Shown in pieces: positions 4,639 through 45,224 of a DNA stretch of 64,000 nt. This DNA comes from a virus: positions 1-64,000 of the IMG/VR virus record IMGVR_UViG_3300017917_000601. One strand, written 5' to 3'. Under the pieces are notes generated by a model. That model was not told the origin of the DNA. It did not search any database and saw only the letters and a program-made list of their open reading frames with translations. The translations under genes and the position numbers were made by a program. The stretch's first letter is position 1, and every line of letters starts with the position of its first letter.

Positions 4639-4643
4639 AGCAT

Positions 4644-27883: not shown

Positions 27884-28144
27884 TTATAGTTCAGTTGGCT
27901 GTGGCTTGGCCGCTTTTTCAGCTAAAGTTTCAATATCTGCATTTAACACAATATCTTCTTTAGACCCAGAAATCGTTTCGCCGGCTGCTAGCTTGCGTTG
28001 TATTTCCTGGGCAACTATTTCTTCAATTGCAATTCGACATCTTTCATGTACTGCATTATCGATCCAATCTTGAGCTGAGAGAGCAACTGCATGAAGAGCT
28101 TTATCTTCTGCATCGCTTAGTACTACTGTATATGTTTTTGACAT
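27884..28144 (-). CDS. Small protein closing the C1q cassette (possible fibre-tip accessory)
   Basis: AGGAG SD; last gene of the fibre operon. Confidence 0.7.
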   Translation of the reverse strand: MSKTYTVVLSDAEDKALHAVALSAQDWIDNAVHERCRIAIEEIVAQEIQRKLAAGETISGSKEDIVLNADIETLAEKAAKPQPTEL

Positions 28145-28159
28145 TTTTTAATCTCCTGT

Positions 28160-28687
28160 TTAAGCTAGAAGCCAGCCAGAAAAATGGCCTAGGCCTCCAC
28201 CCATGTAATAATCGCTTGAATAAGTTGTTTGGTCTCTGTAAATATATAGCTGAACGTAGTCATTAGCGGCCAAGGTTAAGATGCACGATGCTACCATCTG
28301 TTGGTGATAGTTTGTACCAATAGAATAACAATAAGCATTGCCCCTACCAGTTACTAAAGATCCGTTTTTAATCCAACCCCATTCACCGTTTGTAACTGAG
28401 CTAGCACTATTCGACCTGTATAAAACGCTTGCCTGAAACTCATATATACCTGCAATTGGCGCAGTAAATCTACCGTTTGAAGTATTATATCTAGAATTAT
28501 TGTTAGATATTGTTGCTGAAAAGGTTACAGCTCCAATTGATTGGCGTATGCCGCCTTCATAAGCCCACGCCGCCGGTACTTGATTAAAATTTACGTATCC
28601 GTTAGCATCTTGAGTTATTCCAGTCGACCCTGTATTAGCAATCGTTGTTGCTCCTGTTATTGTTGTATTTCCAAGAACTACTGGCAT
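28160..28687 (-). CDS. C1q/TNF-like domain protein (paralogue 3)
   Basis: AWAY...VTF...YNTSNGRFTAPIAGIYEF...LAANDYV...HFSGWLL. Confidence 0.85.
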   Translation of the reverse strand: MPVVLGNTTITGATTIANTGSTGITQDANGYVNFNQVPAAWAYEGGIRQSIGAVTFSATISNNNSRYNTSNGRFTAPIAGIYEFQASVLYRSNSASSVTNGEWGWIKNGSLVTGRGNAYCYSIGTNYHQQMVASCILTLAANDYVQLYIYRDQTTYSSDYYMGGGLGHFSGWLLA

Positions 28688-28691
28688 AGTA

Positions 28692-29225
28692 TTATCCTAT
28701 TAATTTTCCTTGAAAGTGCCCGAGGCCGCCTCCAAAATAATAATCAGTGCTTGCTGATATTACGTTACACCGCATATCAACTACGTCGCCTGCCGAAAGA
28801 CTTAACATGACTGTTGAGAAACAAGGAGTGTGACCGTTTGACGACGGATTTACTACATAAACAAATCCTCTAGTACCAATGTTAGATCCATTTAGGGCAA
28901 AGTACCATTCACCGTTACCGGTGACGCCGTTTGATCTAAACAATAAACTTCCGCAAAACTCATAGATACCCCCTGCGCCAGCGGGAACTGTAAATCTTCC
29001 TGTTGATGTATTATATCCGCTACCTCTGTTAATGTTTACGTTGTTAAAAGGAATTGCAGAGTTTGTAGTTGTTGTTGATGAACCATCATCGCTTCTATAA
29101 GCGTAAAAACACACCCTACTAGGGAATGTAACATAGCCACTGCCGTCAACATTTAGTCCGGCAGAGCTTGTGCCAGCGATTGCCGAAACTCCTGTAATAC
29201 TCGATGCTCCAAGTGTAATTGACAT
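28692..29225 (-). CDS. C1q/TNF-like domain protein (paralogue 2)
   Basis: CFYAY...IPFNNVNINRGSGYNTSTGRFTVP..GIYEF...LSAGDVV...HFQGKLI. Confidence 0.87.
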   Translation of the reverse strand: MSITLGASSITGVSAIAGTSSAGLNVDGSGYVTFPSRVCFYAYRSDDGSSTTTTNSAIPFNNVNINRGSGYNTSTGRFTVPAGAGGIYEFCGSLLFRSNGVTGNGEWYFALNGSNIGTRGFVYVVNPSSNGHTPCFSTVMLSLSAGDVVDMRCNVISASTDYYFGGGLGHFQGKLIG

Positions 29226-29228
29226 GTG

Positions 29229-29753
29229 TTATCCTAATAATTTTCCAGAAAAATGTCCAAGGTTTTCACCATAATAAAAGTCAGTACCAGAAGAAATAGT
29301 TATCAAACAAACACTTACATAATCGCCTGCGTTTAGGTAACGTATTTGCGTCCAATGTGTAGGTATATGTTCACTTGAATAAACTACGTGTGTGTAAGCT
29401 AGTCTGCCTTGGTTAACATTATTTACGGCAAAGCCAACTTCGCCATACCCGCCGCTACTAGAATGGCGTTGCAATACATGAGCATGAAATTGATAGTAGC
29501 CTGCTATAGGTGCAGTAAATCTACCAGTGCTAGTACTATAATGATTACCCCGATTGACTCTAGTATTGCTAAAAACTAACGCTGTAGTTGTCGTAGTAGT
29601 TGATACACCGCCTGAGGAGTACGCATAAAAGCAAGGAATATATGGTAATCTAGCATACCCAGAACTGTCGATAGTTATTCCAGCATTGCCGGTCCCGGCA
29701 ATACTAGTTGCACCAGATATAGTATCTGTAGATCCGTTAATTAACACCGGCAT
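29229..29753 (-). CDS. C1q/TNF-like domain protein (paralogue 1)
   Basis: CFYAY...LVFSNTRVNRGNHYSTSTGRFTAPIAGYYQF...LNAGDYV...HFSGKLL. Confidence 0.87.
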   Translation of the reverse strand: MPVLINGSTDTISGATSIAGTGNAGITIDSSGYARLPYIPCFYAYSSGGVSTTTTTTALVFSNTRVNRGNHYSTSTGRFTAPIAGYYQFHAHVLQRHSSSGGYGEVGFAVNNVNQGRLAYTHVVYSSEHIPTHWTQIRYLNAGDYVSVCLITISSGTDFYYGENLGHFSGKLLG

Positions 29754-32700
29754 TAGATTTTTCCTTTAAGATCATCAATTTGCTTTTGTTGTTCTTTAAT
29801 TGCTTCAACTAGTAAAGCAACGGTGTTTGCATACGCAAGAGATTTAATACCATTTTCATCTGTTACTACTAATTCAGGAATAATTGCTTCAACTTCTTGA
29901 GCAATCATACCCATTTCTCTATTACCGTTTGAAATACGATTATACATTACACCTCGAAGAGCAAGTGCTTTTTCTAAAGCGTTTTCTATAGTAGAAACGT
30001 TTGTTTTTAGTGTCGCATCAGAGTTTGATGTTATTGTTCCGGTGGCTGAGATGTTACCTTCAACAGTTATACCTGCCTTAAATGTAGCAACTCTAGTATT
30101 AGCAACTTCTAACCACGAGTTCATGCTTCCGTTAGTAGTGGCTGTTCTAGCAAAATACAATATACCGTTGCCAGTGGCCATGCCCATTGATGCATAAGTT
30201 GTAGTATCAGCTTTAATGCTAATACACGCTGTACTTAAAGACCACCCCGAAGTTCCATCTGACGCTTGGTGACCTAAAAATGCTCCGTTTGCGGCATCTT
30301 TAAGAACCACTGATTGGTTAGCTGTTGCATAATAAGCACCGCCACTTACTAGGTTAGTAACAGATAAAGATCCTAAAGTGCCAACACTGGTTAGACTTGA
30401 ACTTGTAACACCACTTCCTAAAGCAGTAGCACTTAAGACCGTTGTGTTATTAATTCTAAATGTTTTTCCAGTAGCAATACTTAGATCGTTATTAATTGTA
30501 GTTGTACCAGTTCCTGCGCCAATGCTAATTGCAGTGCCGGCGCCAAATGCGTTAACTGTTGTAGCGTTAGTATTAACAATATTAACAGTAGTTGAGCTAG
30601 AATTAACAGTTAAGTCGCCACCTCTAAATTCTAAGTCGCCTGCAACGACAGCATTGTTATTAATTGTAGTTGTACCAGTTCCTGCACCAATTGCAACGGC
30701 TGTAGCCGCACCACCAATATTTAAACCAGTGGCATTAGTGTTAAACAGCGGCACTGTACCAGTTTGTGAAGTAGTAATGCCGCCGCTTCCATTGGCGGCT
30801 ACAGTTCCGCTAACTGTTAAACTGGTCAATGTGCCAACACTTGTTAGGCTCGATGCCGTAACGCCGCTTCCTAATGTTGTAGCATTAAGAACACTAGTTC
30901 CGTCGACTAGATAACCAAAGGTACTAGCAACTCCAATGTTTTGATTTGCTGTAAATGCGTTAGTTGCATCGACCCAGTTAAAAGTTTTATTACCGTCGCC
31001 TGATTCAACAGTAATACCTGATCCGTCGGCGGCAGCATCGTTTATTGCTCCGCTACCTAACACAATATTTTTGTCGTCAACAGTTAATGTTGTTGAGTTA
31101 ATAGTTGTTGTAGTTCCGTCGACTTGCAAATTACCTTTAATTTGTACAGTTCCAGTATCATTACCTTCAGCCGCTGGATCAAGAATCAATGTGCTTGGGC
31201 CAATAACTTTATTAACATAAATTTTGTCATAAAGAATACTTGAAGTACCTAGTGTATAGAGATTGGTAACACTAGGAACAATGTTAGAACTAACTTGTGT
31301 AAAATAAGTTTTAACAGCTTGCTCAGTTGGAACTGCTAAATTACTGTTACCGCTTAAAGTTGCATCTGCAGAGAACTCGTTAATTTGTTCACCTAACTGA
31401 GCACCAATACTACCAAGTCTTAAACTTGTAAGACCAGATAAGTCGAACGCACTAGCATTAAGTGTTGCTCTACCAGTAGCTTGGTCAACTTTAAAGTATT
31501 CGCCAACTCTGAAGTTACCGTCTTGGTCAGTACTTACATAGAATACACGAGCTGGGAACAGTTCAATAACTTCATTGCCTTGGCTAGCCGCCTGGAAAGG
31601 AATTCCTGGATAGTTAGTAGTTGCTACGCCACCTGTACCAATACTTAAGAAGTCGTGCCCAGTTAATCGAATATTGGAATAATCATATCTAATTTTGACA
31701 CTAGTTCCGTCAACGCTTGGGATTGACTTTTCACCAGCTAGTACAATAGTTGTAACACTGCTACTGTTAGTCCAGCCGCTTACGCTTTGAATAACGTACG
31801 TGTTTGTATCACCGGTTGTAAATTCAATACTGCCGCCTGGACGAGGTTCAACTACAAATCCAGTAGCAATTAAAATAAATCCAGACTGGCCGGTAACTCC
31901 GCCTGTGGCAATTGCCGCAGATACTCCAAGACCGTTGCTAATAGTTTCACCAGCTGTAAATGGGCCACCGCTAGTTACTTTATAGTATATTTTTCTAGCC
32001 GAAGGTTGAACATTAGTAACAACCGCAACTGCTCCACTAGATTGCCCTGTAATGGTGTTGCCGACACTAAAACTTCCACCAGTTAAGCTGATTGCAGTGT
32101 ATTCTAACATGTCTCCGTATAGAGTACCGTTTAAGGTTGTTTCAGTTAAGTTTGTACCAGATGCTAATACTCCGTATGTTCCGTAACTGTTGTTACCGTT
32201 AAGTGCGCGAATCTTTCCGCCTCTTGTTGCCGCATAACCTGTATGACAGAAATATGTAAAGCAACTAACAATTTCGCTCTTGGCATTGTCTTTAACCCAG
32301 AATCCAACACCGCCGTCTAATATAACAGTGTATCCATGGAATACCATAGATTTTAATCCAGTTGCATGTACGCTTCCGTCTAATAATGCCCCAACAGATC
32401 CGGCAGATTTAGCACTACATTCAATAACGTATGGCGACTTTGTAGCGATCGGTGTTAACGGATCAAATGCAACATAAACTCCGCCGATAGTAGACTGGTC
32501 AATGTTTTGATCGTTTGGTGCGTAAGGCACATAACCAGTTAGTCCTTCAAACAACATCTTATTAAGAAGGGCACCATCGCCTAGTCTCCACATTGTTTGT
32601 TGCTCATATCCTGGTGCGGCTTTAACTGTTGTAGTTCTTTGGTTGTCTCCTACAACAGCAACAAAACTAGGAACTGTAATAGGTAATTGTTCTAGATAAA

Positions 32701-33157
32701 CACCTGATGCAACATAAATTGTTGCAGGTCCAACTGCTTGAGTACAGGCATGTTTAATTGTAGAGAATGCAGTTCCCCAAGACAATCCACTGTTAGCATC
32801 ACTGCCTGTAGGACTTACATAATAAATTTTTGTATTGACACCGTTGTCTTGCCAGGTTGGTACTCCGCTAACTACGGTTAACACCTGTCCAGATGACCCA
32901 ATGGGTAGTCTAGCATCTTGACTAGTTTCTCTATAAATTATGTCGCCCTTGGTGGTAGTTACTGTACTACCTTCTACCATTAGTTCAAACTTTGAAGAAT
33001 TTGTAGCCCAACTAGTTGCACTAGTATGGCCTACTATACAAGCATAGCTTGATCCGTTATAGCGAACTACATCGTCTTTGACGTAGGTTTGCCCAAGAGC
33101 CCATGCTCCTCTCCAGTTAAATTTAATTTTACCTAAATTAATTGATGTAATTGCCAT
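29753..33157 (-). CDS. Tail fibre protein with beta-helix region and C-terminal Peptidase_S74-type intramolecular chaperone
   Basis: Shared N-terminal module with the giant proteins; SSLTSVGTL repeats; NSDATLKTNV...GMIAQEVE...LVEAIKE. Confidence 0.85.
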   Translation of the reverse strand: MAITSINLGKIKFNWRGAWALGQTYVKDDVVRYNGSSYACIVGHTSATSWATNSSKFELMVEGSTVTTTKGDIIYRETSQDARLPIGSSGQVLTVVSGVPTWQDNGVNTKIYYVSPTGSDANSGLSWGTAFSTIKHACTQAVGPATIYVASGVYLEQLPITVPSFVAVVGDNQRTTTVKAAPGYEQQTMWRLGDGALLNKMLFEGLTGYVPYAPNDQNIDQSTIGGVYVAFDPLTPIATKSPYVIECSAKSAGSVGALLDGSVHATGLKSMVFHGYTVILDGGVGFWVKDNAKSEIVSCFTYFCHTGYAATRGGKIRALNGNNSYGTYGVLASGTNLTETTLNGTLYGDMLEYTAISLTGGSFSVGNTITGQSSGAVAVVTNVQPSARKIYYKVTSGGPFTAGETISNGLGVSAAIATGGVTGQSGFILIATGFVVEPRPGGSIEFTTGDTNTYVIQSVSGWTNSSSVTTIVLAGEKSIPSVDGTSVKIRYDYSNIRLTGHDFLSIGTGGVATTNYPGIPFQAASQGNEVIELFPARVFYVSTDQDGNFRVGEYFKVDQATGRATLNASAFDLSGLTSLRLGSIGAQLGEQINEFSADATLSGNSNLAVPTEQAVKTYFTQVSSNIVPSVTNLYTLGTSSILYDKIYVNKVIGPSTLILDPAAEGNDTGTVQIKGNLQVDGTTTTINSTTLTVDDKNIVLGSGAINDAAADGSGITVESGDGNKTFNWVDATNAFTANQNIGVASTFGYLVDGTSVLNATTLGSGVTASSLTSVGTLTSLTVSGTVAANGSGGITTSQTGTVPLFNTNATGLNIGGAATAVAIGAGTGTTTINNNAVVAGDLEFRGGDLTVNSSSTTVNIVNTNATTVNAFGAGTAISIGAGTGTTTINNDLSIATGKTFRINNTTVLSATALGSGVTSSSLTSVGTLGSLSVTNLVSGGAYYATANQSVVLKDAANGAFLGHQASDGTSGWSLSTACISIKADTTTYASMGMATGNGILYFARTATTNGSMNSWLEVANTRVATFKAGITVEGNISATGTITSNSDATLKTNVSTIENALEKALALRGVMYNRISNGNREMGMIAQEVEAIIPELVVTDENGIKSLAYANTVALLVEAIKEQQKQIDDLKGKI

Positions 33158-33174
33158 AGTGTTATTCCGTTATT

Positions 33175-33960
33175 TTAACTAAATGTAACAATTAAGTTAC
33201 CGCTAGCATCCATTGAATACGAGTAATTTGATGTACCTATATCCGTATCTTCATATAGGTCATTTCCAGTTGCATCTTGTAAAGACACTGTTGAATCTTG
33301 TGTATAAGAGTAAATTAAGTCGCCGCTTGAATTAACACTAAATCCGTGGAACATAGTGTCATATGAAATTTCTCCAGCTACGTCAACTGCAAACCCCGAA
33401 CCTATTATTATTCCACCTAATACAGATGTTGTTGCTGGCACTAACGGGTTAGTGCTAATTACTCCGTTAGCATCAACTGATATACCGGTTCCAACAATAA
33501 CACCGCCTAGAGTATTAGTAGTTGCTTTTGCAAGTGCAGTTGTAATACTAATATCAGCAGTACCATCAAATGCAACACCGTTAATGCTTCTTGCTGTTTG
33601 TAATTTTGTTGCTGTGGCGGCGTTACCAACAATAGTATTTGTAACAGTTAAATTAGTTAATGTTCCAACGCTTGTTAGACTTGAACTAACAACATTAGAG
33701 GCTAGTGTAGTTCCAGTAAGAGTACTCGATGCCGCGGTAACAGTAATGTTAGCGGTTCCGTCAAATGCAACGCCGTTGATGTTCCTTGACGTCTGTAATT
33801 TAGTAGCACTTGCCGCGTTGCCAGAAAGCACGTAAGTAGCAACATTAGACATGTTACTTTTCTTACTGACAGGAATTTGACCACTGTTGTCTACAACAGG
33901 AATCGTAACTGTTCCGTCTATCGTTGTTAACGGGGTAAGTTCGGAGATCTTAATTGGCAT
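33175..33960 (-). CDS. Short tail-fibre-like protein
   Basis: Two ATKLQT.R.INGVAFDGTA.I repeats and two AT...LGG.I.G.G..VD..G repeats. Confidence 0.7.
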   Translation of the reverse strand: MPIKISELTPLTTIDGTVTIPVVDNSGQIPVSKKSNMSNVATYVLSGNAASATKLQTSRNINGVAFDGTANITVTAASSTLTGTTLASNVVSSSLTSVGTLTNLTVTNTIVGNAATATKLQTARSINGVAFDGTADISITTALAKATTNTLGGVIVGTGISVDANGVISTNPLVPATTSVLGGIIIGSGFAVDVAGEISYDTMFHGFSVNSSGDLIYSYTQDSTVSLQDATGNDLYEDTDIGTSNYSYSMDASGNLIVTFS

Positions 33961-33966
33961 GTTTTA

Positions 33967-34758
33967 TTAACCGATAACAAACGTTAACGGTGTTCCTCCT
34001 ACTACATTTGTTTCTAATTCTTTATCTAATTCTTTTTGCTCTTCTTTGCCTGCGGCTAGAAGTGCTGTTCCGTTGAGTTGAATAGGACTTTGCGGGCCAG
34101 CAATACTACCAAATTTACTACGTGCTTCACCTAGCATTACTTTGCAAGTTGCTAGACTATAATCATATAACCACTGTTTGATATAAACATCCTGTAGTAG
34201 TACAAAGTCTGGTCTAAAGTTGTGTGTTCTTAACAAAACTTGTTCGCCTTGTGCAAACGGTCTTTGTAAAATTGTTAAAATATGATTAGTTGGATTCCAT
34301 TTAAATTCAATAAATGCTCCAAACATTTTTCCAACAAGTTTTTGATATCCTGCAAATAATTCATAAGTTGCAAGACCACCTAGCATACTTCCTGTTAGTA
34401 AGTAGGTATTTGTATAAGCTAAGTTAAAAGGTTCAAATAATGTGCCGCCAGCACCGGTACCACTACGTGATCCAATAGCACGTCTAAAAATTTGACGAAC
34501 CTCAATAACTTCGTTGGGCAATCTGTACTCATTTACATCCTGCTGTAATTCTAAGAACATATAGCTTTCTTCAACAGAAGCACTGCTTTTTTGTCTTAAT
34601 CTGCTAAGTGCGCGATCTAACGCAAGCTCGTAGTGTTTGGGATCTAATTCTACTTCGACCATGCCGTCGCCCAGCATAGTTTTGCAGTAATCAAACACTT
34701 TGTTGCGCTCTAGAGTGCTGTTAGATTGCCCCGGATCTTGAGGGTATGTATCGGCCAT
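33967..34758 (-). CDS. gp13: Neck protein, T4 gp13-like
   Basis: MLGDGMVEVELD, WLYDYSLA..K..LGEARSKF, IQLNG; next to gp14/gp15. Confidence 0.85.
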   Translation of the reverse strand: MADTYPQDPGQSNSTLERNKVFDYCKTMLGDGMVEVELDPKHYELALDRALSRLRQKSSASVEESYMFLELQQDVNEYRLPNEVIEVRQIFRRAIGSRSGTGAGGTLFEPFNLAYTNTYLLTGSMLGGLATYELFAGYQKLVGKMFGAFIEFKWNPTNHILTILQRPFAQGEQVLLRTHNFRPDFVLLQDVYIKQWLYDYSLATCKVMLGEARSKFGSIAGPQSPIQLNGTALLAAGKEEQKELDKELETNVVGGTPLTFVIG

Positions 34759-34774
34759 TATTAGTTCTCCTAGT

Positions 34775-34796
34775 ATATTTATCTAGCGATAAATAT
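34775..34796. promoter_or_regulatory. Back-to-back late promoters forming a palindrome
   Basis: ATATTTATC-TAGC-GATAAATAT between divergent gp13 and gp14. Confidence 0.75.
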
Positions 34797-34800
34797 CATT

Positions 34801-36231
34801 ATGCCACGATTATCTTTATATAAGCCCGAGCGAGGGCAAGATTATTCCTTTATAGACCGTCAGATTTCTGAAGCATTTCAGATGGGCGGCACAGATATCT
34901 ACCTGCACAAATATATAGGTACAGGCGAAGGTGCTGATTTTAAAGACGTAACACAGATACAAGATCTTGTGTTTTTAGAAAATCGTGACAGAAAATACGA
35001 TCAAGAAATCTACAGAATTCGAGGAATTTACAACGTACAAAACATTGACTTTAACCTAAGTCAGTTTGGTCTGTTTATCGACAATGACACGCTCTATATG
35101 ACCGTGCATATTAATGATTTTATCAAATTTATTGGTCGTAAACCACTCAGCGGCGATGTTATGGAGTTGCCACATTTACGTGACGAGTTTGCACTTAACG
35201 GAGCAGATGTTAGCTTACCTAGATACTATGTTATTGAAGATGTGGGCCGTGCTAGCGAAGGGTTTAGTGCTACGTGGTATCCTCATCTATACAGATTAAA
35301 ACTTAAGAAAATTATGGATAGCCAGCAGTTTGCTGATATCCTTAACAAGCCAGCTACAGATTCTATGGGTAATCCTAGTGCTAGTGGTGATACACTATTA
35401 GACATCTTAAGCACGTATCAAAAGGAACTTGCTGTTAACAATGCTGTTATTGCTGAAGCTGATTTAGACACTAATACAGCACATCCGTACGATAAAGATG
35501 ATCCTAACAGTCCCCCTGTAGGAAAGAGCGGTTATGAAACAAGACAATTCTATACTTTAGCTGTAAACGAGCAAGGTAAGACTGTTTTAAATACCGCTGA
35601 CAATGGTAGTTTGCTTGCATCTGGAACTATATTATCTACTGAAAGTGTAGCTAGGCCATTAAAGACTGGTTATACAGGATACTTAGTCGGAGATGGGTTT
35701 CCGGACAACGGGCACGAGTTTGGTCACGGTATTCAATTTCCGGAGCTTGCTGGAGAAGGCGATTATTTCTTAAGAACAGATTTCCTGCCAAATCGTCTTT
35801 TTAGATTTAAAGAAAATCGCTGGATAAGACTCGAAGACAACGTAAGAATGGAACTATCTAATACCAGCACAAGACAAACACTTAAGACTAGCTTTATTAA
35901 TAATACTGCATATCTATACGATCAAGCAGTTGCAATTGATTATGTTACAATTACAGCTAATGCATCTGTAATAGATACTGATGTAAATTATCCAGTGTCT
36001 GCTCTGTACCTAGTGTTTAAATTTGAAACTACTGAAATAGCATTTACTGTTGCCAGCCATACAGGATTGTTAACTAACAATGCTGGAAAAGTAAGAATAA
36101 ATCTTCCAATTGTTAACACCGTGCAACAAGTTATACCTTACTCAGGTACTTGGAAAGTCAGTTTCTGCAATGGCAGAGTTGAACAGCGACAAGCTCTTAG
36201 CAAGGCTTTAAGACCAAAGGCAGATCTATAA
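34801..36231 (+). CDS. gp14: Neck/head-closure protein, T4 gp14-like, with C-terminal extension
   Basis: GTDIYLHKY, LSQFGLFI, GDVMELP, YRLKLK; neck cluster. Confidence 0.75.
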   Translation: MPRLSLYKPERGQDYSFIDRQISEAFQMGGTDIYLHKYIGTGEGADFKDVTQIQDLVFLENRDRKYDQEIYRIRGIYNVQNIDFNLSQFGLFIDNDTLYMTVHINDFIKFIGRKPLSGDVMELPHLRDEFALNGADVSLPRYYVIEDVGRASEGFSATWYPHLYRLKLKKIMDSQQFADILNKPATDSMGNPSASGDTLLDILSTYQKELAVNNAVIAEADLDTNTAHPYDKDDPNSPPVGKSGYETRQFYTLAVNEQGKTVLNTADNGSLLASGTILSTESVARPLKTGYTGYLVGDGFPDNGHEFGHGIQFPELAGEGDYFLRTDFLPNRLFRFKENRWIRLEDNVRMELSNTSTRQTLKTSFINNTAYLYDQAVAIDYVTITANASVIDTDVNYPVSALYLVFKFETTEIAFTVASHTGLLTNNAGKVRINLPIVNTVQQVIPYSGTWKVSFCNGRVEQRQALSKALRPKADL

Positions 36232-37697
36232 TGCAATATTTTTACGATGCACAGATAAGACGATATCTAATACAGACTATTCGTGTTCTAAGTAATTTTA
36301 CTGTAAGATACAGTGATGGAACTCTTAGACAAATACCAGTAATGTACGGAGATAGTGATCGTCAAGCCGCAACTATTATCAATCAAAACTCTGAAAATAC
36401 TCTACGTTCAGTACCAAGGATCGCTGTTTATATTACTGGATTAGATATTGATAGAGACAGATTAAGTGATGCTAGTTTCGTAGGTAAAGTGCATGTTCGT
36501 GAGAGAGCTGTAGAAAATGGACAATACACTTCAGGGCAAGGACGTAACTATACAGTTGAACGTCTAATGCCTACTCCGTTTAAACTTACTATGAAGTGTG
36601 ACATTTGGGCCAGCAACACTGATCAAAAGTTGCAGATTTTAGAACAGCTATTAGTGTTGTTTAATCCTAGTCTTGAACTTCAAACATCTGACAACTACCT
36701 AGACTGGACTAGCCTAAGTGTATTAAATTTAAACAATGTTAACTGGAGCAGTAGGACAGTTCCTGTTGGCACTGACAGTCAAATAGATGTAGCAACATTA
36801 ACATTAGATACACCTATTTGGATCAGCCCGCCTGCTAAAGTTAAACATCTTGGTGTTATTACAAAAATTATTACCAGTTTGTACGATGCATCTGTTACTG
36901 ATAACAACACTTACATTGAAGGTCTAGGACAGCCTCTAGTTCCTGCACAGACTACACTAAGCTCGTTATTAGCTCGAGACGTTGTTACTATTACAGACTA
37001 CGATCTCCAAGTCTACAATGGCAGAGGTATCTTATTACCAAGAAGTGAAAGCAGTATTCCTAGAGAACCCACACTAGATGTTCCTGTTAGACAGGGCAAT
37101 ACATCAATTAGCTGGTTAGAAGTATTTGAAAAATATCCAGGCAAATACACAGCAGGATCGAGTACACTTTACGTCATGCAACCTAACGGAACAGAAATTG
37201 TTGGTACAGTTGCGGTTGATCCGTTAGATGAATTCACACTAATGGTAAATTGGGATTCTGACACATATCCTAGCGATACACTAATTGACTCAAGTGGTCT
37301 AATGTTAGGTGATCAAGGGTTTGATCAAAACTCTGCTAGAGGAACATTTGATGCAATCATTGACCCTACAAAAGTTTATCCAGGAAACGGAATTTCAAAT
37401 CTTGTAGCTGGTGATAGATTTTTAATAATTGAAGATATTATAGATACTAGTGCTAATGATGTTTCTGCAAGAGCTTGGGGTACGTTTGTAGCTAAGGCTA
37501 ACGATATTATCGAGTGGACAGGCACTGCATGGCAAGTAATATTTGAAGCCGCTCAAGAAACAGACACTCTCATATGGCAGACTAATATATACAAGAGCCA
37601 AGCTAATACTAGAATACAGTTTGTATGGAACGGTGTTCAGTGGGCTAAGAGCTTTGAAGGTGAATATACGGTAGGCCAATGGAGACTAGAACTGTAA
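36231..37697 (+). CDS. gp15: Tail terminator/sheath stabiliser, T4 gp15-like, with C-terminal extension
   Basis: YFYDAQIRRY, IPVMYG, PRIAV, PTPFKL, QILEQLLVLFNP. Confidence 0.85.
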   Translation: MQYFYDAQIRRYLIQTIRVLSNFTVRYSDGTLRQIPVMYGDSDRQAATIINQNSENTLRSVPRIAVYITGLDIDRDRLSDASFVGKVHVRERAVENGQYTSGQGRNYTVERLMPTPFKLTMKCDIWASNTDQKLQILEQLLVLFNPSLELQTSDNYLDWTSLSVLNLNNVNWSSRTVPVGTDSQIDVATLTLDTPIWISPPAKVKHLGVITKIITSLYDASVTDNNTYIEGLGQPLVPAQTTLSSLLARDVVTITDYDLQVYNGRGILLPRSESSIPREPTLDVPVRQGNTSISWLEVFEKYPGKYTAGSSTLYVMQPNGTEIVGTVAVDPLDEFTLMVNWDSDTYPSDTLIDSSGLMLGDQGFDQNSARGTFDAIIDPTKVYPGNGISNLVAGDRFLIIEDIIDTSANDVSARAWGTFVAKANDIIEWTGTAWQVIFEAAQETDTLIWQTNIYKSQANTRIQFVWNGVQWAKSFEGEYTVGQWRLEL

Positions 37698-38128
37698 CTG
37701 ATAAGATTGTATGTAGCGGAGCATTGTTCTACGCTAAATCTACACGAAGATTCTTACTGTTACAAAAAGCCAACGGCAAACATCAAGGAACTTGGGGCCT
37801 AGTAGGCGGCACAAACCTACAAAATGAAAATCCTTGGCAAGGTCTACAGCGAGAAATTGCCGAGGAAATTGGTGTTACTCCTGCAATCATTAAAACTATT
37901 CCTCTAGAAACGTTTGTTAGCAACGACAAAGTTTTTAATTTTCACACCTACTTGTGTGTTATTGAGGATGAGTTTATTCCAAAATTAAGCCCAGAACATT
38001 GTGCCTGGGCTTGGTCAACTATTGATTGGGCTCCTAAACCGTTACACCAGGGTTTAAGAAATAGTTTTTCTAGTAAGATTATAAGAGCTAAATTACAGAC
38101 AGTATTTGATATTGTTGACTTAATTTAA
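37679..38128 (+). CDS. NUDIX hydrolase
   Basis: Complete Nudix box G-TNLQN-E-NPWQGLQ-REIAEEIG. Confidence 0.92.
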   Translation: METRTVTDKIVCSGALFYAKSTRRFLLLQKANGKHQGTWGLVGGTNLQNENPWQGLQREIAEEIGVTPAIIKTIPLETFVSNDKVFNFHTYLCVIEDEFIPKLSPEHCAWAWSTIDWAPKPLHQGLRNSFSSKIIRAKLQTVFDIVDLI

Positions 38129-38331
38129 GCCTCATCTAACTTATAGAATGTGTATCTTTCAATATTTTGATCTGGGTGTTTCGCTATAGACAATTTTCTT
38201 CCAGAGCATTTAAAAGAATATTCAGATAACTCCGCATCTGGCATGCTTGCAGTATCAAATCCTAGATCTATTCTCCAAGAAAATCTCGGATATTTAGTGT
38301 GTATTTCTGTAACTTCTTCGTCAGTAAACAT
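38125..38331 (-). CDS. Small hypothetical protein
   Basis: GATAAATA and AGGA upstream. Confidence 0.6.
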   Translation of the reverse strand: MFTDEEVTEIHTKYPRFSWRIDLGFDTASMPDAELSEYSFKCSGRKLSIAKHPDQNIERYTFYKLDEA

Positions 38332-38430
38332 AAGTTATTCCTCTCTGATTGATTATTTATCGACGACTATCGCCAAATGATTTGTTTTATTTGCTAGAAT
38401 AAGATAAAATAAGCTACTTAGAGGTAAAAC

Positions 38431-39216
38431 ATGTTTTTTAAAAAATCTACAATATACCTAGACTGTTATACAACCCAAACACATGTTTATGATCTATTCA
38501 AAATTGAATCGGCCAAAAAACACGTTCCTGATTGGTTTAGGGAGTTGCCTAACACGTTTGACGACCCTCGTTCGATAATTCCAATACCTACTGCAAAAAC
38601 TTGCTCAGGTATTGCTAGTTTTTTTAGAACTGGATTTATTATTCCATTATGGTCTGATGCTAAACTAGGTTATGCTCCTATACCCAACGGTTACACTACT
38701 ACTATTCAACCAGTTACACAGTTCTCTGATCAACTAACAAAGTGTCAGATACACGAACAAAAACAAATTGGCAAGGATTTTATGCCTGATAATCTCTATG
38801 CTCATTTTAAAATATTTTCCCCTTGGGTTTTTGAGTGTAGTGAAAATATCGACTGGCTGTGGTTGCAACCAACATATAACTTTAAAGAACCAGATAGCAT
38901 AACAGTCTTACCTGGTGTACTAGACTTTAAGTATAATTCAAATGTTTTTATTAATTTTAGCATAAGAAAAACCAGCCCGTCTAATTCACCTAACTTACTA
39001 AGTTTAGAAGCAGGACAACCGTTAGTTCATTTAGTTCCAATAACTGATAAAGAAGTTATTGTTAGAAATCACATTGTAACTGTTGACCAATGGAATAAGA
39101 TTTCTCAAAAAAATAACAGAGTATTCTTTTCTAATAATCACAACAAAAAACGAAAACTATTGCAGGAGCAAGAAGTTTTAAAAAGCAAGTGCCCTTTTGG
39201 ATTTAAAAAATTATGA
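38431..39216 (+). CDS. Hypothetical beta-rich protein heading the oxygenase cluster
   Basis: PDWF...TAKTC.GI...GFIIPLWSD...LPGVLD...AGQPLVHLVP; KCPF C-terminus; GAGGT SD. Confidence 0.65.
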   Translation: MFFKKSTIYLDCYTTQTHVYDLFKIESAKKHVPDWFRELPNTFDDPRSIIPIPTAKTCSGIASFFRTGFIIPLWSDAKLGYAPIPNGYTTTIQPVTQFSDQLTKCQIHEQKQIGKDFMPDNLYAHFKIFSPWVFECSENIDWLWLQPTYNFKEPDSITVLPGVLDFKYNSNVFINFSIRKTSPSNSPNLLSLEAGQPLVHLVPITDKEVIVRNHIVTVDQWNKISQKNNRVFFSNNHNKKRKLLQEQEVLKSKCPFGFKKL

Positions 39217-39758
39217 TAGCAGACCACGCATTTAGACCCAACGTTTATACACCTGAAGAGTGTGCAGAAATATGCCGACTCATGGAGGCAAACATCAATG
39301 TAGCGATACGAGATTTACCAAGCAAAGACTCAGTTAAAACTTCTAAAGTCGGCATGGTAGAATTTGGAAAAGTCAAAGATAAATTAGAAAAATTCAAAAA
39401 TATATGCCTCGACGGTAATAAACATTTATTTGGTTTTGATCTTTTTCAGTACACAGACCTAGAATATTTGATGTATAATGTCTACGACGTCGGTGGGGAA
39501 TACAGCTGGCACATTGATGGTAGCCGTGGAGAAATTAAAGATATTAAACTAACTGCACTACTTAATGTAAGTACTGAACCATATGAAGGCGGAGAATTAG
39601 AAGTATTCTTTAGTTCTAAACCAGAACCCATTACCCAATTTAGAGCGCCAGGATCATTTTTTATTTTCCCTAGCTGGATGCCACATCGGGTTACTCCAGT
39701 AACTAGTGGCCGTAGAACAACCATTACCTTATTTTTACAAGGCCCAAATTTTAGATAA
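39213..39758 (+). CDS. 2OG-Fe(II) oxygenase, prolyl-4-hydroxylase/PKHD-like
   Basis: YSWHID, KLT, YEGGEL, FPSWMPHRVTPVTSGRR. Confidence 0.92.
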   Translation: MIADHAFRPNVYTPEECAEICRLMEANINVAIRDLPSKDSVKTSKVGMVEFGKVKDKLEKFKNICLDGNKHLFGFDLFQYTDLEYLMYNVYDVGGEYSWHIDGSRGEIKDIKLTALLNVSTEPYEGGELEVFFSSKPEPITQFRAPGSFFIFPSWMPHRVTPVTSGRRTTITLFLQGPNFR

Positions 39759-39768
39759 AAGGATCAAT

Positions 39769-40362
39769 ATGAATATTCACAGCCTATTTCCACAACCAGT
39801 TGCTCAAGTTAATCTTAATAGAAAATTAACTGAAGAAGAGTACAACTGCATAATGACTCAAGAGTTAAGGCCAGATTTTGTAAATGCTATTAGTAATGAT
39901 TTTAAAGTATTGGATCGTCCAGAACTAAAACAAATCAAAGCGTTTTGTGAGTACTATACAAACATTTTCTTTGAAAAAGTATTTGATCCCATGACAGAGA
40001 TAAAACCACAGTTAACTCTTAGTTGGGTAAACTATAATAAAAAAGGTGATTGGTGTAACGAACACAATCATTCAAATAGCGTTATTAGTGGTGTATTTTA
40101 TGTACAGACCTACGACAATGATGCTATTATGTTTCATAATGAACCACAGTTTAGACAGCTATCTTGGTTAAATCGAGAAGACAATCCATGGAACGCTGAA
40201 ATGGCAATGTTTCCTGCAATCGAAGGCGACCTATTGTTGTTCAAATCTGATATGAAGCATCGAGTAGTACCAGTGCAACACGATAAAGTGCGTGTGAGTT
40301 TAGCGTTTAATGCATGGATCAGCGGTGATATTGGTGACGACTTGAGTGCTTTAAAACTCTAA
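39769..40362 (+). CDS. 2OG-Fe(II) oxygenase-like protein (HxH type; start MNIHSL)
   Basis: SWVN...HNHSNSVISGVFYV...GDLLLFKS..KHRV...RVSLAFN; AGGA SD. Confidence 0.88.
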   Translation: MNIHSLFPQPVAQVNLNRKLTEEEYNCIMTQELRPDFVNAISNDFKVLDRPELKQIKAFCEYYTNIFFEKVFDPMTEIKPQLTLSWVNYNKKGDWCNEHNHSNSVISGVFYVQTYDNDAIMFHNEPQFRQLSWLNREDNPWNAEMAMFPAIEGDLLLFKSDMKHRVVPVQHDKVRVSLAFNAWISGDIGDDLSALKL

Positions 40363-40371
40363 GGATCTATT

Positions 40372-40947
40372 ATGCAGATTTATGAAAATATATTACCTAA
40401 TGCGCTACTAAGAAAAGTACAAGACGTTGTATTACACGACGGAACACCGTGGCAGTTTACAACTACTACTAACCAATCTGCTACTGATAAGTTATACGGA
40501 TATAGTTGGGGGCATATTGCTTTGGATCAAAACGGCCCAAAAACTGCGGCAGCTGACGTATTACACACTGCGATTTTAATTGCTTTAGAAAACGCTGAAC
40601 AACCTGTCAAAGAAATTTATAGAATACGATTAGGTCTACTAACTGTTACACACGAACGTAGAGTAAACGATCCTCATATAGATATAGATGTTCCGCATAA
40701 AACTGGTTTAATCTATCTCAACGAAGCTGACGGCCCGACTATATTTTATGAAAACAAATATAACACTAGCAGTAGGCTAAAAGGCATGCAATATTTAGAA
40801 AAGGTAATAGGTGATAAGTTAAAAATTGCAGAAGAAGTTGATCCAGTAGTCAATCGAATGGTCATATTTGATGGATTAACTTATCACTCTAGCACTACGC
40901 CTACTACTGTTCCAAGGCGTGTTGTGTTAAACTTTAACTTTAATTAA
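40372..40947 (+). CDS. 2OG-Fe(II) oxygenase-like protein
   Basis: PHID...LIYLNEADGPT...NRMVIFDG..YHSS..P...RVVLNFN. Confidence 0.88.
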   Translation: MQIYENILPNALLRKVQDVVLHDGTPWQFTTTTNQSATDKLYGYSWGHIALDQNGPKTAAADVLHTAILIALENAEQPVKEIYRIRLGLLTVTHERRVNDPHIDIDVPHKTGLIYLNEADGPTIFYENKYNTSSRLKGMQYLEKVIGDKLKIAEEVDPVVNRMVIFDGLTYHSSTTPTTVPRRVVLNFNFN

Positions 40948-41351
40948 TGACTATGTCCGTGTATTTTGCAAAAAGGCTCTTCTTCAGATTTTGGCCTTAG
41001 TAACGGTAATAGTTTTATATCTAACGGCATTACAGATCTTTCGCCTGCGCTGGCGTAATACCAAACACCGTTTTCCATAAGATAATAATCTTCACAGAAG
41101 AACTTCTCAAAATGTCTCATGAAATCAGCAAAGTTAAAAAATGTCAGTGCAGGCGTAGCTACATCTGCTGGTTGATTTGCTGATTCTGTAATATATTTTT
41201 GAGAACCTTGATCAATCAAAGTTTTTACACGAGCTTGATCTTTCCAGTGTGATTGTAAGCAAGGTGCAAGATTGACGTAATCTCCAGATTCGCACATTAT
41301 TGCCTTAATAATTTTTCCTTCTAATATTGCGATAGCTGATTTGGTCTCCAT
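40944..41351 (-). CDS. Hypothetical protein
   Basis: AAGGA SD; convergent with the oxygenase cluster. Confidence 0.65.
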   Translation of the reverse strand: METKSAIAILEGKIIKAIMCESGDYVNLAPCLQSHWKDQARVKTLIDQGSQKYITESANQPADVATPALTFFNFADFMRHFEKFFCEDYYLMENGVWYYASAGERSVMPLDIKLLPLLRPKSEEEPFCKIHGHSH

Positions 41352-41422
41352 AATGTTCCTTTGTGGTTATCTATTACTTAGTAGATTCTAAAATACTTTA
41401 TTTTTCTTTAGAAAAACTGCTG

Positions 41423-41463
41423 TATAAATAGCATTGTACTGCCTTCCCAAATAAAGATAAATA
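41423..41463 (+). promoter_or_regulatory. Tandem late promoters for the Cys-rich cassette
   Basis: TATAAATA at 41423-41430 and GATAAATA at 41456-41463, then GAGG SD. Confidence 0.65.
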
Positions 41464-41491
41464 CTAGTAGATTATTGGCAGAGGAAAAAAC

Positions 41492-42028
41492 ATGGCATCA
41501 TTGCAAAGTTCCACAGTTAGCGGAAACATTACAGCTAGCACCGGTGTTTATAAAGCTGGAGGCAACCAAACCCCATGGTATCGTATTCAGCATTGTGCTG
41601 ATGCTACTAGCACAAGCATTTGTAATCCAACTTATTCATGCGGTTGGTTACATATTAGAACACCGTTACCTGCTACAAACGCGGCTAGCGGTATTGGTTG
41701 GAATCCAAACATTGTAGAAGTCGTTGGTTTTCATACATACAGCGGTGAAGTTACTAGCGATTTTAAAGCTATTGTGAATAATAGCGGATACAGTGATAAT
41801 GCTTGGTACGGGAATCAAATTCGAGCAAATCAAAGTAACTATAGTAGTATGGTTGTTTATCAGTCATCTAACAACTACGGAGGTCTCAGACGTGTATGCA
41901 TTGCTGTTCCAAAGATAGGTTGTTGTTGCCAGGGGTGGATTTGGATACGCTGGTGGAATAACAGTGGCTATCGTGCTGACTTTGCTTGGGGAGTCGGTGC
42001 AAATAGTTCGAGCTCCTCAATATTTTAA
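41492..42028 (+). CDS. Cys/His-rich paralogue A (CCC motif), putative fibre-tip protein
   Basis: HC, LHIRTP, GW.P..EVVGFHTYSGE, YGG.RRVC, GCCCQG.IW.RW. Confidence 0.75.
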   Translation: MASLQSSTVSGNITASTGVYKAGGNQTPWYRIQHCADATSTSICNPTYSCGWLHIRTPLPATNAASGIGWNPNIVEVVGFHTYSGEVTSDFKAIVNNSGYSDNAWYGNQIRANQSNYSSMVVYQSSNNYGGLRRVCIAVPKIGCCCQGWIWIRWWNNSGYRADFAWGVGANSSSSSIF

Positions 42029-42037
42029 GGATATAAA

Positions 42038-42562
42038 ATGGCAAGTTTACAAGGAACGACAGTTAACGGATTACTGACAATAACAGGACAGACTGTTCTT
42101 GCAGGGAATTCAAATATTAGCCCATGGGTGCAATTAAGCCACTGTCCTACACAATACTCTGTAGCAAATAATAGATTACACGTAAGAACACCGATCCCGG
42201 GAAACGCAATGGGTTGGAATCCGTTTATTTTGGAAGTAGTTGGTTATCATACATATAGCGGTGAAGTTACAGAAGATTTTAAAGCTGTTATGAATGTTAA
42301 CGGTAGTCAAGGATCTCCTACTGGGTGGTACGGTAGTCAAATTTTTTCAAATAATGGTACAAACACAGCACCGTTTGTATATCTATCCAACAGTACATAC
42401 GGTGGTGAACATCGCGTATGTTTTTCAGTAAACATGGTTAGCTGTTGTTGTACTGGAAATATTTGGGTAAGATGGTTTAATGGTTCAAGTTATTGGAATA
42501 GTTTTGCTTGGGCAACTGCTTCGTCTAGCGATAGCCAGGCTAGTCCAGTTAAGCAATTTTAA
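42038..42562 (+). CDS. Cys/His-rich paralogue B (CCC motif)
   Basis: Same motif series; SCCCTG; AAGGA SD. Confidence 0.75.
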   Translation: MASLQGTTVNGLLTITGQTVLAGNSNISPWVQLSHCPTQYSVANNRLHVRTPIPGNAMGWNPFILEVVGYHTYSGEVTEDFKAVMNVNGSQGSPTGWYGSQIFSNNGTNTAPFVYLSNSTYGGEHRVCFSVNMVSCCCTGNIWVRWFNGSSYWNSFAWATASSSDSQASPVKQF

Positions 42563-42577
42563 AGAGATAAGTACAAC

Positions 42578-43123
42578 ATGGCAACATTTAACGTAAACAC
42601 AACAATTAATGGAGACTTTACTAGTTCAACTGCTATTTTAGACGGACAAAGTGACATGACTGAGTGGTATCAGCTCAATCATTGTGTTTGTCCAAGTAGT
42701 GACGGGACTAGTGACTGTATTGGTAACGGTAGACCATATCTGCATGTTAGAACACCAATACCTGCAGACGAGTCTGCAGGTGTAGGTTGGGGGCCTTACA
42801 TTTTAGAAGTAGTTGGATATCACAGCTACTCAGGAGAGAGATGGCACGATTTTAAAGCTATTGTAAACACAACCGGTGATGGTACAAATTCTTGGTACGG
42901 AAGCCAAGTCCGTGTTAATACTGGTAATGCTAGTTCTGAACCGTTTGTGTATAGATCTTCAAGCACTTATGGCGGATTTAGACGTATGTGTTTTGCTATT
43001 GGTAAAATTAGCTGTTGCTGTACTGGAAACCTATGGGTTCGTATTTGGACTAACAGTGGGTTTAGAGCTAGTTTTCCATGGGCTACAGAAACTGCTAATA
43101 CAAACAGCACACTAAGATTTTAA
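42578..43123 (+). CDS. Cys/His-rich paralogue C (CCC motif)
   Basis: Same motif series; SCCCTG; GATAAGTA 4 nt before the ATG. Confidence 0.75.
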   Translation: MATFNVNTTINGDFTSSTAILDGQSDMTEWYQLNHCVCPSSDGTSDCIGNGRPYLHVRTPIPADESAGVGWGPYILEVVGYHSYSGERWHDFKAIVNTTGDGTNSWYGSQVRVNTGNASSEPFVYRSSSTYGGFRRMCFAIGKISCCCTGNLWVRIWTNSGFRASFPWATETANTNSTLRF

Positions 43124-43135
43124 AGGAAAAAGATT

Positions 43136-43534
43136 ATGTATCATTACAGATGGCAAATTGCTAGAGTTGATGGATTTCAGCAACACCCCGAGTTAACATT
43201 AGAAAATGTTATTGCTGAAGTATATTGGGAATTAGAAGTAAGAGACACAAGTGACATGAGTGTTCATTACATTCGTGCAATGACTAAACTTCCAGATCCT
43301 ACACCAAACGATTTTACTGATTATATTGATTTAAATCATACCGATATTTTATCAATGGTATGGTCAGTCGAAGGCGGTAGAGAAGCACTTGAACAGAGAG
43401 CTAAACAAGAGCTAGATGAATTAAGAAATCCTGCTACAAAGATTCAAACATTACCAAAACACTGGTTAGCAGATTGCTGTCCAGATGGTACAAATATTGA
43501 TTTAGCCGGAGCAGTTAGTTCTTCCGAAGGTTAA
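43136..43534 (+). CDS. Acidic fibre-associated accessory protein
   Basis: W.I..VD...V.W...F.DY.DL...W...NP pattern resembling small proteins that follow fibre genes; C-terminal DCCP; AAGGA SD. Confidence 0.55.
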   Translation: MYHYRWQIARVDGFQQHPELTLENVIAEVYWELEVRDTSDMSVHYIRAMTKLPDPTPNDFTDYIDLNHTDILSMVWSVEGGREALEQRAKQELDELRNPATKIQTLPKHWLADCCPDGTNIDLAGAVSSSEG

Positions 43535-43536
43535 GC

Positions 43537-43764
43537 ATGAGTTTAAAAGATACAGTTACACATTTTAAAGATATCGTTGTAAAAGCTGGTCAAACACTTG
43601 ACGAAGCAATTGAAGAAAATCGCAAGCAGGGAAAAATTAAATTAGACATCTGCAAACAATGCGAAAACTTTAATATGTCTACGAGATTTTGTGGAATATG
43701 TCATTGCTTTATGCCAGCAAAAACTCGAATACCAGGAATGAAATGTCCAATTGACAAGTGGTAA
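43537..43764 (+). CDS. Small six-Cys putative metal-binding protein
   Basis: ICKQC...CGICHCF..AKT....CPIDKW. Confidence 0.75.
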   Translation: MSLKDTVTHFKDIVVKAGQTLDEAIEENRKQGKIKLDICKQCENFNMSTRFCGICHCFMPAKTRIPGMKCPIDKW

Positions 43765-43790
43765 AAAAAAGGGCTCTAAGAGCCCTTTTT
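43763..43790. terminator. Bidirectional intrinsic terminator
   Basis: AAAAAGGGCTC-TAA-GAGCCCTTTTT between convergent genes. Confidence 0.88.
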
Positions 43791-43802
43791 ATTCTTTCTA
43801 GT

Positions 43803-45224
43803 TTATTTTCTTAAACTATCAATTTCAGCTTTTAATGATTTAACAGCTTCGATCAAATAAGCAGTAAGTCTGTTATAACAAACTCCATCTGGCTTACCGT
43901 CTTTTAACTGCACCAAGTTGGGTAAAACTTCGTAAACTTGTTCAGCAATAAGTCCTGCTTCGTTCTTATTATCTGAACCTGCTGTACGATCGTATGTAAC
44001 ACCGTTTAACATTAAAATCTTGTCTAGAGCATCCATAATTGGGTTAACATTCTCTTTGTAAGCAATACTTGAGTTTTCAGTAATTGTTCCAGAGAATGTA
44101 GCGTTACCGTTATTAGCCAGTGTTAATGCGTTAATACCGTTAGTTGACCAAGAGCCGCCAGATGCATTATTAGTTGCATTAACCCAAAATCTTAAAGAAC
44201 CACCAGTATTAGTATTACCAGCAACGATTTCGTTGTTACCGTTATTGCCTAATTGTAGTACGTTCCAGCTTAGGCCTGCTGAATAGCTATCGCTACTGTC
44301 ATATCTTGCCTTAATTGTGTTGCCGCTAGCTACAGTTAATGCGCCAGCAACACTAGTTGCACCGGTAATTGATGCTCCGCCACTTGCTACTGTTAGGCCG
44401 CCAGTGATGTTTGCACCACCAGTACTAACTGTTAACTGACCACCAATTGTGCTTGCCGCGCCAGTAAACAAGTTTCCACTAATACCAACGCCGCCAGTGA
44501 CTACTAACGTGCCAGAGGTAGAATTAGTTGCCGCGGTTCCTGCAGTAAATGTTGTTGCCGCATTAGATGTTAATGTAGTAAATGCACCAGTGCCGCGTGT
44601 GGTAGCACCAATGTTCATACCATTAATGTTACCTGCGGTTGCTGATGTAATAGTAATTGTACCAGCACCAGTTGTTGTGATACTTTGATTGTTAGTACCA
44701 GTGTCTAAGTTAACTGCACCGTTAGCGGCTAAAGTAGTAAATGCACCAGTGCCGCGTGTAGTAGCACCAATGTTCATTCTATTGATGTTACCAGCAGTTC
44801 CTGGGTTAATTGTAACAGTACCAGTTCCAGTTGGTTGGAAACTAAATGTTGCGTTTGTTCCATTAGCAGTAATATTACCTGTTACGGTTAAGTCTGAAAT
44901 GTTTGCCGCGCCACCGTTTTGACTTACAATAATATAATCAGTTCCATCAGAAGCTAGTGTAATACTAGTTCCTGTACCAACTGTTTGTGTGCTAGTTCCT
45001 GATGAGCCGTTGCCGCGAAATACACCACTCGGAGATGATAGAGTTATATTACCGCTGGCAGCATTGAAGAAACTTTGAGACACACCGCTAATTAAAGTTG
45101 GGTTAGGAACTGTAACTGTATAACTAGTTCCTGTAAACTTTGTAAAAACACCTTCACCCGGCGTAACTTGTGTAGTTGTCGTAGTGGTCGATGCTGTTTG
45201 TAGTACGGTATTATAACGTGCCAT
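43803..45224 (-). CDS. Tail fibre protein with C-terminal Peptidase_S74-type chaperone
   Basis: Thr/Gly-rich repeats; NSSIAYKENV...GVTY...GLIAEQV...YNRLTAYLIEAVKSL. Confidence 0.82.
   Translation of the reverse strand: MARYNTVLQTASTTTTTTQVTPGEGVFTKFTGTSYTVTVPNPTLISGVSQSFFNAASGNITLSSPSGVFRGNGSSGTSTQTVGTGTSITLASDGTDYIIVSQNGGAANISDLTVTGNITANGTNATFSFQPTGTGTVTINPGTAGNINRMNIGATTRGTGAFTTLAANGAVNLDTGTNNQSITTTGAGTITITSATAGNINGMNIGATTRGTGAFTTLTSNAATTFTAGTAATNSTSGTLVVTGGVGISGNLFTGAASTIGGQLTVSTGGANITGGLTVASGGASITGATSVAGALTVASGNTIKARYDSSDSYSAGLSWNVLQLGNNGNNEIVAGNTNTGGSLRFWVNATNNASGGSWSTNGINALTLANNGNATFSGTITENSSIAYKENVNPIMDALDKILMLNGVTYDRTAGSDNKNEAGLIAEQVYEVLPNLVQLKDGKPDGVCYNRLTAYLIEAVKSLKAEIDSLRK
44575..44777. 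repeat. 44-nt direct repeat (1 mismatch), 159-nt period
   Basis: 44575-44618 vs 44734-44777, encoding MNIGATTRGTGAFTT. Confidence 0.9.

Follow-up and report, generated by a model that had tools for sequence, protein, structure and literature searches.

Triplets of putative head proteins encoded beside S74-capped tail fibres of an uncultured jumbo phage

Introduction

To our knowledge, the receptor-binding fibres of phages are regarded as homotrimers in which all three binding sites are identical; exceptions are the monomeric gp38 cap and one recent virophage heterotrimer. Vertebrate complement C1q is encoded by three tandem genes; gC1q is a trimerising domain, and chains A, B and C together make up the heterotrimeric head. 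In the long tail fibres of phages T2 and S16, the C-terminal intramolecular chaperone of gp37 is removed and a separately encoded adhesin, gp38, caps the tip (PMC7289586; PMC12032242). In turn, three consecutive tail proteins of virophage DSLV2 co-purify as a 1:1:1 heterotrimer and fall into positional clades (PMC12724248). Here, we analysed the first 64 kb (hereafter, the window) of a 76.9-kb IMG/VR viral record, IMGVR_UViG_3300017917_000601, estimated to be 20% complete. The window encodes two tail fibres with a C-terminal S74 chaperone domain, each lying beside three small paralogous proteins: C1q-domain proteins at one fibre and members of a family termed CCC at the other. Our sequence comparisons give good support to modular, separately encoded heads that sit on presumably chaperone-processed fibres and are swapped as cassettes. 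The system combines known kinds (the split fibre of T2/S16 and the tripartite tail of DSLV2) in a new form; C1q host-recognition proteins of marine phages were known earlier (PMC3909814).

The locus resembles those of T2, T6 and S16 in having a chaperone-ended fibre, one or more putative distal receptor-binding genes directly downstream and an N-terminal attachment region. The T2/S16 gene order (chaperone fibre, then adhesin gene) holds at the C1q locus of the window and at 22 CCC loci, and further points of likeness are a weak match of the shorter fibre to the S16 structure 6F45 and the Gly-rich heads of relatives. It differs in having three head genes, not one, and additional helper genes, and also in the head folds: gC1q and a predicted new CCC beta-sandwich correspond to folds of trimeric fibres elsewhere, whereas gp38 is a monomeric polyglycine sandwich, and a Pfam scan of the window heads found no match to GP38. 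With DSLV2 it shares three consecutive paralogues of ~200 aa, first, second and third clades, and single-gene fibres as phage homologues, although positional clades of the DSLV2 type are found for CCC (22 of 22 loci) and are not conserved for C1q. The DSLV2 proteins have the gp37-tip/collar (PF07484) fold, are proposed to sit on capsomers and are not accompanied by an S74-capped shaft; the phage system, in contrast, alternates between at least four head families, and its window heads had no PF07484 match in the Pfam scan, the fold search giving other fibre C-terminal domains (Z ~6). As in vertebrate C1q, the window has three tandem paralogues with a gC1q domain; the phage heads, however, have a stalk of only ~40 residues in place of a collagen stalk, their phage relatives are mostly single C1q-ended fibres, and a heteromer is here something that we infer. 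Finally, receptor-binding proteins that branch or dock through an adaptor, together with assembly chaperones (Mu Tfa, T4 gp38/gp57A), likewise show short conserved N-terminal peptides on exchangeable proteins and small helpers right after the tip (PMC7289586), but the candidate helpers described below (acc86, DUF7936 and DUF6171) match no characterised chaperone family.

To judge from its genes, the source is an uncultured jumbo myophage, since the window carries genes for a terminase, a tail sheath and a gp15-like sheath stabiliser, all of them T4-type functions, and its large terminase shares 53% identity with the terminase of the PA5oct group (Pseudomonas jumbo phages). A megablast search of the region against an isolate phage collection returned no close relative.

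Two S74-capped fibres and their triplets

The first fibre locus of the window comprises the following genes.

29753-33157, minus strand: 1134-aa tail fibre with an N-terminal CBM_5_12 domain, a conserved body of ~620 aa, shaft repeats and a C-terminal S74 domain; junction motif GTITSNSDA
29229-29753, minus strand: C1q head a, 174 aa (Pfam C1q, E 1.8e-10), its start overlapping the stop codon of the 1134-aa fibre gene
28692-29225, minus strand: C1q head b, 177 aa (Pfam C1q, E 2.2e-8), 46% identical to head a
28160-28687, minus strand: C1q head c, 175 aa (Pfam C1q, E 6.8e-11), 39-40% identical to heads a and b
27884-28144, minus strand: acc86, an 86-aa accessory protein after the C1q triplet, with homologues after C1q-ended proteins in relatives

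At the second locus we found the following.

41492-42028, plus strand: CCC head a, 178 aa, predicted beta-sandwich, paralogous to b and c, clade a
42038-42562, plus strand: CCC head b, 174 aa, paralogous to a and c, clade b
42578-43123, plus strand: CCC head c, 181 aa, paralogous to a and b, clade c
43136-43534, plus strand: DUF7936 accessory protein, 132 aa (Pfam, E 1.2e-10)
43537-43764, plus strand: small Cys-rich DUF6171 accessory protein, 75 aa (Pfam, E 7e-6, slightly under the curated cut-off; PHROG 13558), present in most CCC loci
43763-43793, either strand: hairpin with a 15-bp perfect stem, bordered by one A run and one T run, that separates the CCC cassette from the 473-aa fibre gene convergent with it
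43803-45224, minus strand: 473-aa tail fibre with an N-terminal anchor of ~170 aa common to other fibres, Gly/Thr-rich shaft repeats and a C-terminal S74 domain; junction motif GTITENSSI

The first-pass annotation, made from the sequence alone, had both fibre genes run from shaft repeats straight into an S74-type chaperone. The chaperone end is borne out for both open reading frames (ORFs) by Pfam and by a genome search: Peptidase_S74 covers residues 1046-1097 of the 1134-aa fibre (nt 29867-30022, E 2e-14) and residues 385-438 of the 473-aa fibre (nt 43911-44072, E 2.6e-10), with PF13884 scores of 54 and 40.9 bits against a curated cut-off of 22. The 1134-aa protein additionally matches PHROG 9851 (tail fibre) with 636 bits. 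The direct transition holds only approximately, as ~65-100 residues without repeats precede each S74 domain. An AF2 monomer model of the 473-aa fibre (mean pLDDT 44) is too low in confidence to judge whether this protein has a tip domain of its own; its residues 319-473 align weakly with the S16 gp37 tip that bears gp38 (E 0.0015), 6F45 being the sole solved structure matched by this sequence.

S74 or endosialidase-type intramolecular chaperones typically carry a Ser/Lys dyad at the cleavage junction. Across 15 aligned fibres (alignment A7), we found T382, E383, S385, S386 and K390 of the 473-aa fibre to be invariant, including a Ser-x4-Lys pair at the junction; the corresponding stretch of the 1134-aa fibre reads SNSDATLKTN. 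Both fibres are candidates for release of the S74 chaperone by autocleavage.

The three C1q heads share 39-46% pairwise identity (BLASTP E 6e-25 to 2e-43), score 34.8-42.9 bits for PF00386 (cut-off 23.7) and match solved gC1q chains (C1q, adiponectin, C1QL) with E values down to 3e-13. Among the CCC heads, identity is 45-48% (E 1e-49 to 1e-57), and none of them matched a Pfam family. No significant similarity was found between the two triplets (best BLASTP E 0.046), which agrees with the initial view that they are unrelated in sequence. The earlier finding of exactly three similar-sized paralogues plus one or more small accessory genes beside each fibre was likewise upheld by coordinates, paralogy and copy count, the whole 76.9-kb record holding exactly three C1q and exactly three CCC copies. 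One correction concerns orientation: the CCC triplet lies on the strand opposite to the 473-aa fibre gene and converges with it on the hairpin, which is probably a bidirectional terminator. A T4-type late promoter motif, TATAAATA, is positioned 62 nt upstream of CCC a; the window contains this motif just 4 times, which is less often than shuffled sequences do.

The AF2 model of CCC a is a confident beta-sandwich (pLDDT 87.8). Its fold matches are weak (Foldseek E >= 2e-3, VIA Z <= 6.3) and include C-terminal domains of phage tailspikes and fibres as well as T4 gp9, which is suggestive of a fibre or tailspike C-terminal domain and stops short of a fold assignment. Three CCC members (P0121, P0122 and P0123) carry an FG-GAP (~390 aa) or LamG (~200 aa) domain inserted in the loop that separates the H-C motif from the LHVRTP motif. 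This loop is the part most variable between CCC paralogues, and such lectin-type insertions would fit an exposed binding face.

The heads as detached fibre tips

In all of 80 related loci, the C1q domain is C-terminal, in proteins of 146-1633 aa, and an acc86 homologue immediately follows the C1q-ended protein in ~50 of them. In turn, an exhaustive profile search found that the CCC domain also forms the C-terminal end of fibre-like proteins measuring 263-1165 aa, including one that contains collagen repeats. Since these fused forms carry them at the end of long fibres, C1q and CCC are best understood, from sequence, as fibre-tip domains, here detached from the shaft. Acc86 is a probable assembly helper specific for C1q tips; Atlas look-ups with acc86 and DUF7936 gave matches to uncharacterised viral families only.

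We found that stand-alone heads of all families start with a similar short N-terminal motif. This putative adaptor of ~15-25 residues occurs in two types, M-A-x-L-x-x-T-T-I/V and M-P/A-V/I-x-L/I-N/G, and is present in 12 of 15 heads, compared with 45 of 2578 other ORFs (1.7%), most of the latter being small and head-like. The junction type of the fibre (TE-SSI or TSNSDA) tracks the adaptor type regardless of the domain family of the head, in few independent cases.

The CCC locus in relatives

A profile search collected 140 CCC proteins, nearly all of 165-196 aa, and their tree has three deep clades with one window copy in each. A tblastn search of the phage collection with one CCC protein gave no matches. 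Viral and metagenome scans, the latter with a three-sequence alignment as query, yielded 32 CCC loci, 22 of which hold a complete set. Clade-specific HMMs recover the order a-b-c in every complete locus (22/22), and all 22 share the organization S74 fibre, CCC a-b-c, DUF7936 and usually DUF6171, all on the same strand, with CCC a directly after the fibre gene and gaps of about -1 to 20 nt. The fibres themselves range from 348 to 1722 aa and have in common the chaperone and the last ~8 residues before it, GT(L/I)TE(S/N/A)SSI.

Because the locus of L090 is colinear (giant protein, p110, S74 fibre, CCC a-b-c, DUF7936, DUF6171), the convergent layout of the window is a local inversion of the five-gene CCC cassette, which is also present in the closest relative, L083. 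We considered a programmed inversion of the CCC block similar to that of the Mu G segment and rejected it, as there are no flanking inverted repeats and the same orientation is fixed in L083.

Downstream of DUF6171 in L089, L094 and L112 lie several tandem fibres of 640-770 aa that share the first ~170 residues of the 473-aa fibre, and behind each of them comes an ORF of 85-118 aa. The pattern resembles a set of alternative fibres that have one anchor domain in common and a separate helper for every fibre.

Cassette exchange at the 1134-aa fibre locus

Orthologues of the 1134-aa fibre (L115-L119) share its first ~620 residues and the flanking genes (p263 and p261 upstream, a dNMP kinase downstream). 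In the window, L115, L117 and L119, the head slot lies between the conserved fibre body and the dNMP kinase, and the S74-ended orthologues each carry three paralogous heads from families other than C1q. The sets found, including that of a putative orthologue (L204), are as follows.

L115: heads of 430, 187 and 185 aa, a new family, with an additional domain inserted in the 430-aa member; a 115-aa gene accompanies the set
L117/G002: heads of 822, 630 and 799 aa, Gly_rich_2 proteins, one with LamG domains, followed by the dNMP kinase
L203/G003: heads of 944, 876 and 806 aa
L204/G004: heads of 572, 337 and 470 aa after a C-terminal fragment of an S74 fibre, found via the S74 region; putative orthologue of the 1134-aa fibre

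As S74-capped orthologues of one fibre hold three heads of other families at one locus, the comparison shows, at the level of gene content, that whole head cassettes are exchanged at a fixed site. It had been suggested as a check whether triplets are kept in related jumbo phages while the domain type varies; this is what we observed in L115, L117/G002 and L203/G003. Orthologues without S74 have other arrangements, and ~18 S74 fibres of unrelated loci, examined as a control, have no such downstream triplet. Altogether, more than 25 related loci show the layout, and at least four types of tip domain are interchangeable in it.

A proposed split fibre with a three-chain head, and other readings

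The mechanism that we propose is the following. The shaft protein would trimerise from its C-terminal S74 intramolecular chaperone, which would then cut itself off. The distal receptor-binding head would be encoded just downstream as three small proteins, each consisting of the N-terminal adaptor and a tip domain (a gC1q jelly-roll or CCC beta-sandwich; in relatives a Gly_rich_2, lectin or other domain), and the adaptors would dock on the three-fold shaft end exposed by chaperone release. Family-specific small helpers, acc86 for C1q and DUF7936 with DUF6171 at the CCC locus, may assist assembly. The likeliest stoichiometry would place each paralogue once per fibre, giving an asymmetric three-chain head, and replacing the entire head cassette could change host range. 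Trimer folding of fused fibres would be nucleated by their C-terminal tip; where the tip is separate, the intramolecular chaperone may take over this task and leave a free docking end.

The earlier annotation had already proposed such a modular fibre. Its first part, separate and exchangeable tip heads on S74-capped fibres, agrees with the fused forms, the cassette exchange and the T2/S16 precedent; its three-chain part is a hypothesis. For one asymmetric 1:1:1 head per fibre, we see a nearly even chance. The broader proposal is a little more tentative, namely, that this jumbo phage lineage builds obligate three-chain heads from one copy each of three paralogues, docked via a common adaptor on a cleavage-exposed homotrimeric shaft end, with cassettes of at least four unrelated families swapped at fixed loci.

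Possible, if doubtful, is that the three paralogues are alternative heads, each forming a homotrimer (or a monomeric adhesin similar to gp38) and competing through the shared adaptor for one fibre end; virions would then carry mixed fibres with three specificities, a form of bet-hedging or of multi-receptor use. The number of alternative receptor-binding proteins is normally variable, yet CCC proteins come as three in 22 of 22 loci, with an invariant a-b-c order and deep positional clades. The number three recurs in four sets of other families (L115, L117, L203 and L204), and in the window and L115 a single helper gene serves three heads. All of these observations count for one 1:1:1 head and against three alternative ones, and vertebrate C1q and the DSLV2 tail serve as precedents for such a head.

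Several findings weigh the other way. Both tip domains are found on single-gene fibres, which are presumably homotrimers; heteromers are therefore not obligatory. In L201 (positions 1-4100), there are five small heads from different families: two are C1q heads and the rest WWQIG-type or similar. Each has its own helper, namely acc86 after the C1q heads and proteins of 108-113 aa after the others, and in L082 helper genes are interleaved between the C1q heads, so that these loci present mixed families and one-head-one-helper units. The three heads of L204 are alike only over their first 50-60 residues, their C-terminal domains differing behind a common adaptor; sizes inside a set can be very unequal (430/187/185 or 608/608/351 aa); and CCC a, b and c have just 2, 0 and 4 clade-specific residues, respectively. 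Each of these points favours alternative heads, as does the gp38 precedent, where a monomeric adhesin sits on a trimeric tip (PMC12032242).

Other observations also fit the proposed mechanism poorly. The region before the chaperone is, except for its last ~8 residues, unconserved among CCC-linked fibres. The idea of a constant triplet number stands for CCC and not for C1q, whose copy number in other phages is mostly 1 (range 1-5) and which is rarely located beside an S74 fibre. In G001, one Gly-rich head and a 99-aa gene follow the counterpart (orthologue) of the 473-aa fibre, two further head paralogues lying 2.4 kb off, past an inverted block. Finally, since L206-L208 possess DUF7936 directly after S74 fibres, with CCC genes absent, this protein may serve the fibre or its chaperone instead of the CCC heads.

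It is unlikely that the small proteins form short fibres of their own or decorate some other site (baseplate, the giant 3039- and 2377-aa proteins, neck or capsid), with the S74 adjacency reflecting clustering of structural genes in a hypervariable island: arrays of up to ~10 genes for similar small proteins with the same N-terminal motif and without an S74 fibre in the aquatic phage contigs L010, L013 and L016, the three short C1q heads with MPI-type N-termini and acc86 in L047 (positions 3686-5689) behind a 266-aa fibre-like protein with no S74 domain detected, and marine-phage C1q-domain proteins reported as separate host-recognition genes near tail fibres (PMC3909814) speak for this option, but in every complete locus the CCC triplet starts within a few bases of the stop of an S74 fibre, these fibres sharing only chaperone and junction over 348-1722 aa, and junction type covaries with adaptor type.

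A conserved shaft-chaperone-triplet layout would make host-range determinants of uncultured jumbo phages recognizable by rule, and would suggest why some fibres use an intramolecular chaperone, as the tip that normally nucleates folding is encoded separately. If a 1:1:1 head is true, it would offer a natural route to asymmetric, combinatorial binding surfaces. The previously unannotated CCC family (~140 clusters) gains a putative role as a fibre-tip domain, and acc86, DUF7936 and DUF6171 become linked to fibre assembly.

Neighbouring genes

One further gene of the window belongs to the conserved module.

45246-45578, minus strand: p110, a conserved 110-aa protein, between the 3039-aa giant protein and the 473-aa fibre, with synteny in L083, L090 and G001

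The two giant structural proteins comprise 3039 aa (45598-54717) and 2377 aa (54755-61888). The N-terminus of the former contains repeated W-x-G-x-Y-x-x-D-V-V motifs and resembles the CBM5/12 start of the 1134-aa fibre; relatives keep this giant protein, p110 and the S74 fibre in a colinear arrangement. A run of genes (38431-40947) immediately upstream of the CCC cassette includes three encoding 2OG-Fe(II) oxygenase-type proteins (39213-39758, 39706-40362 and 40372-40947), and oxygenases of a similar kind are also located within the head cassettes of L115 and L119. Their proximity to head cassettes raises the possibility that fibre proteins are modified.

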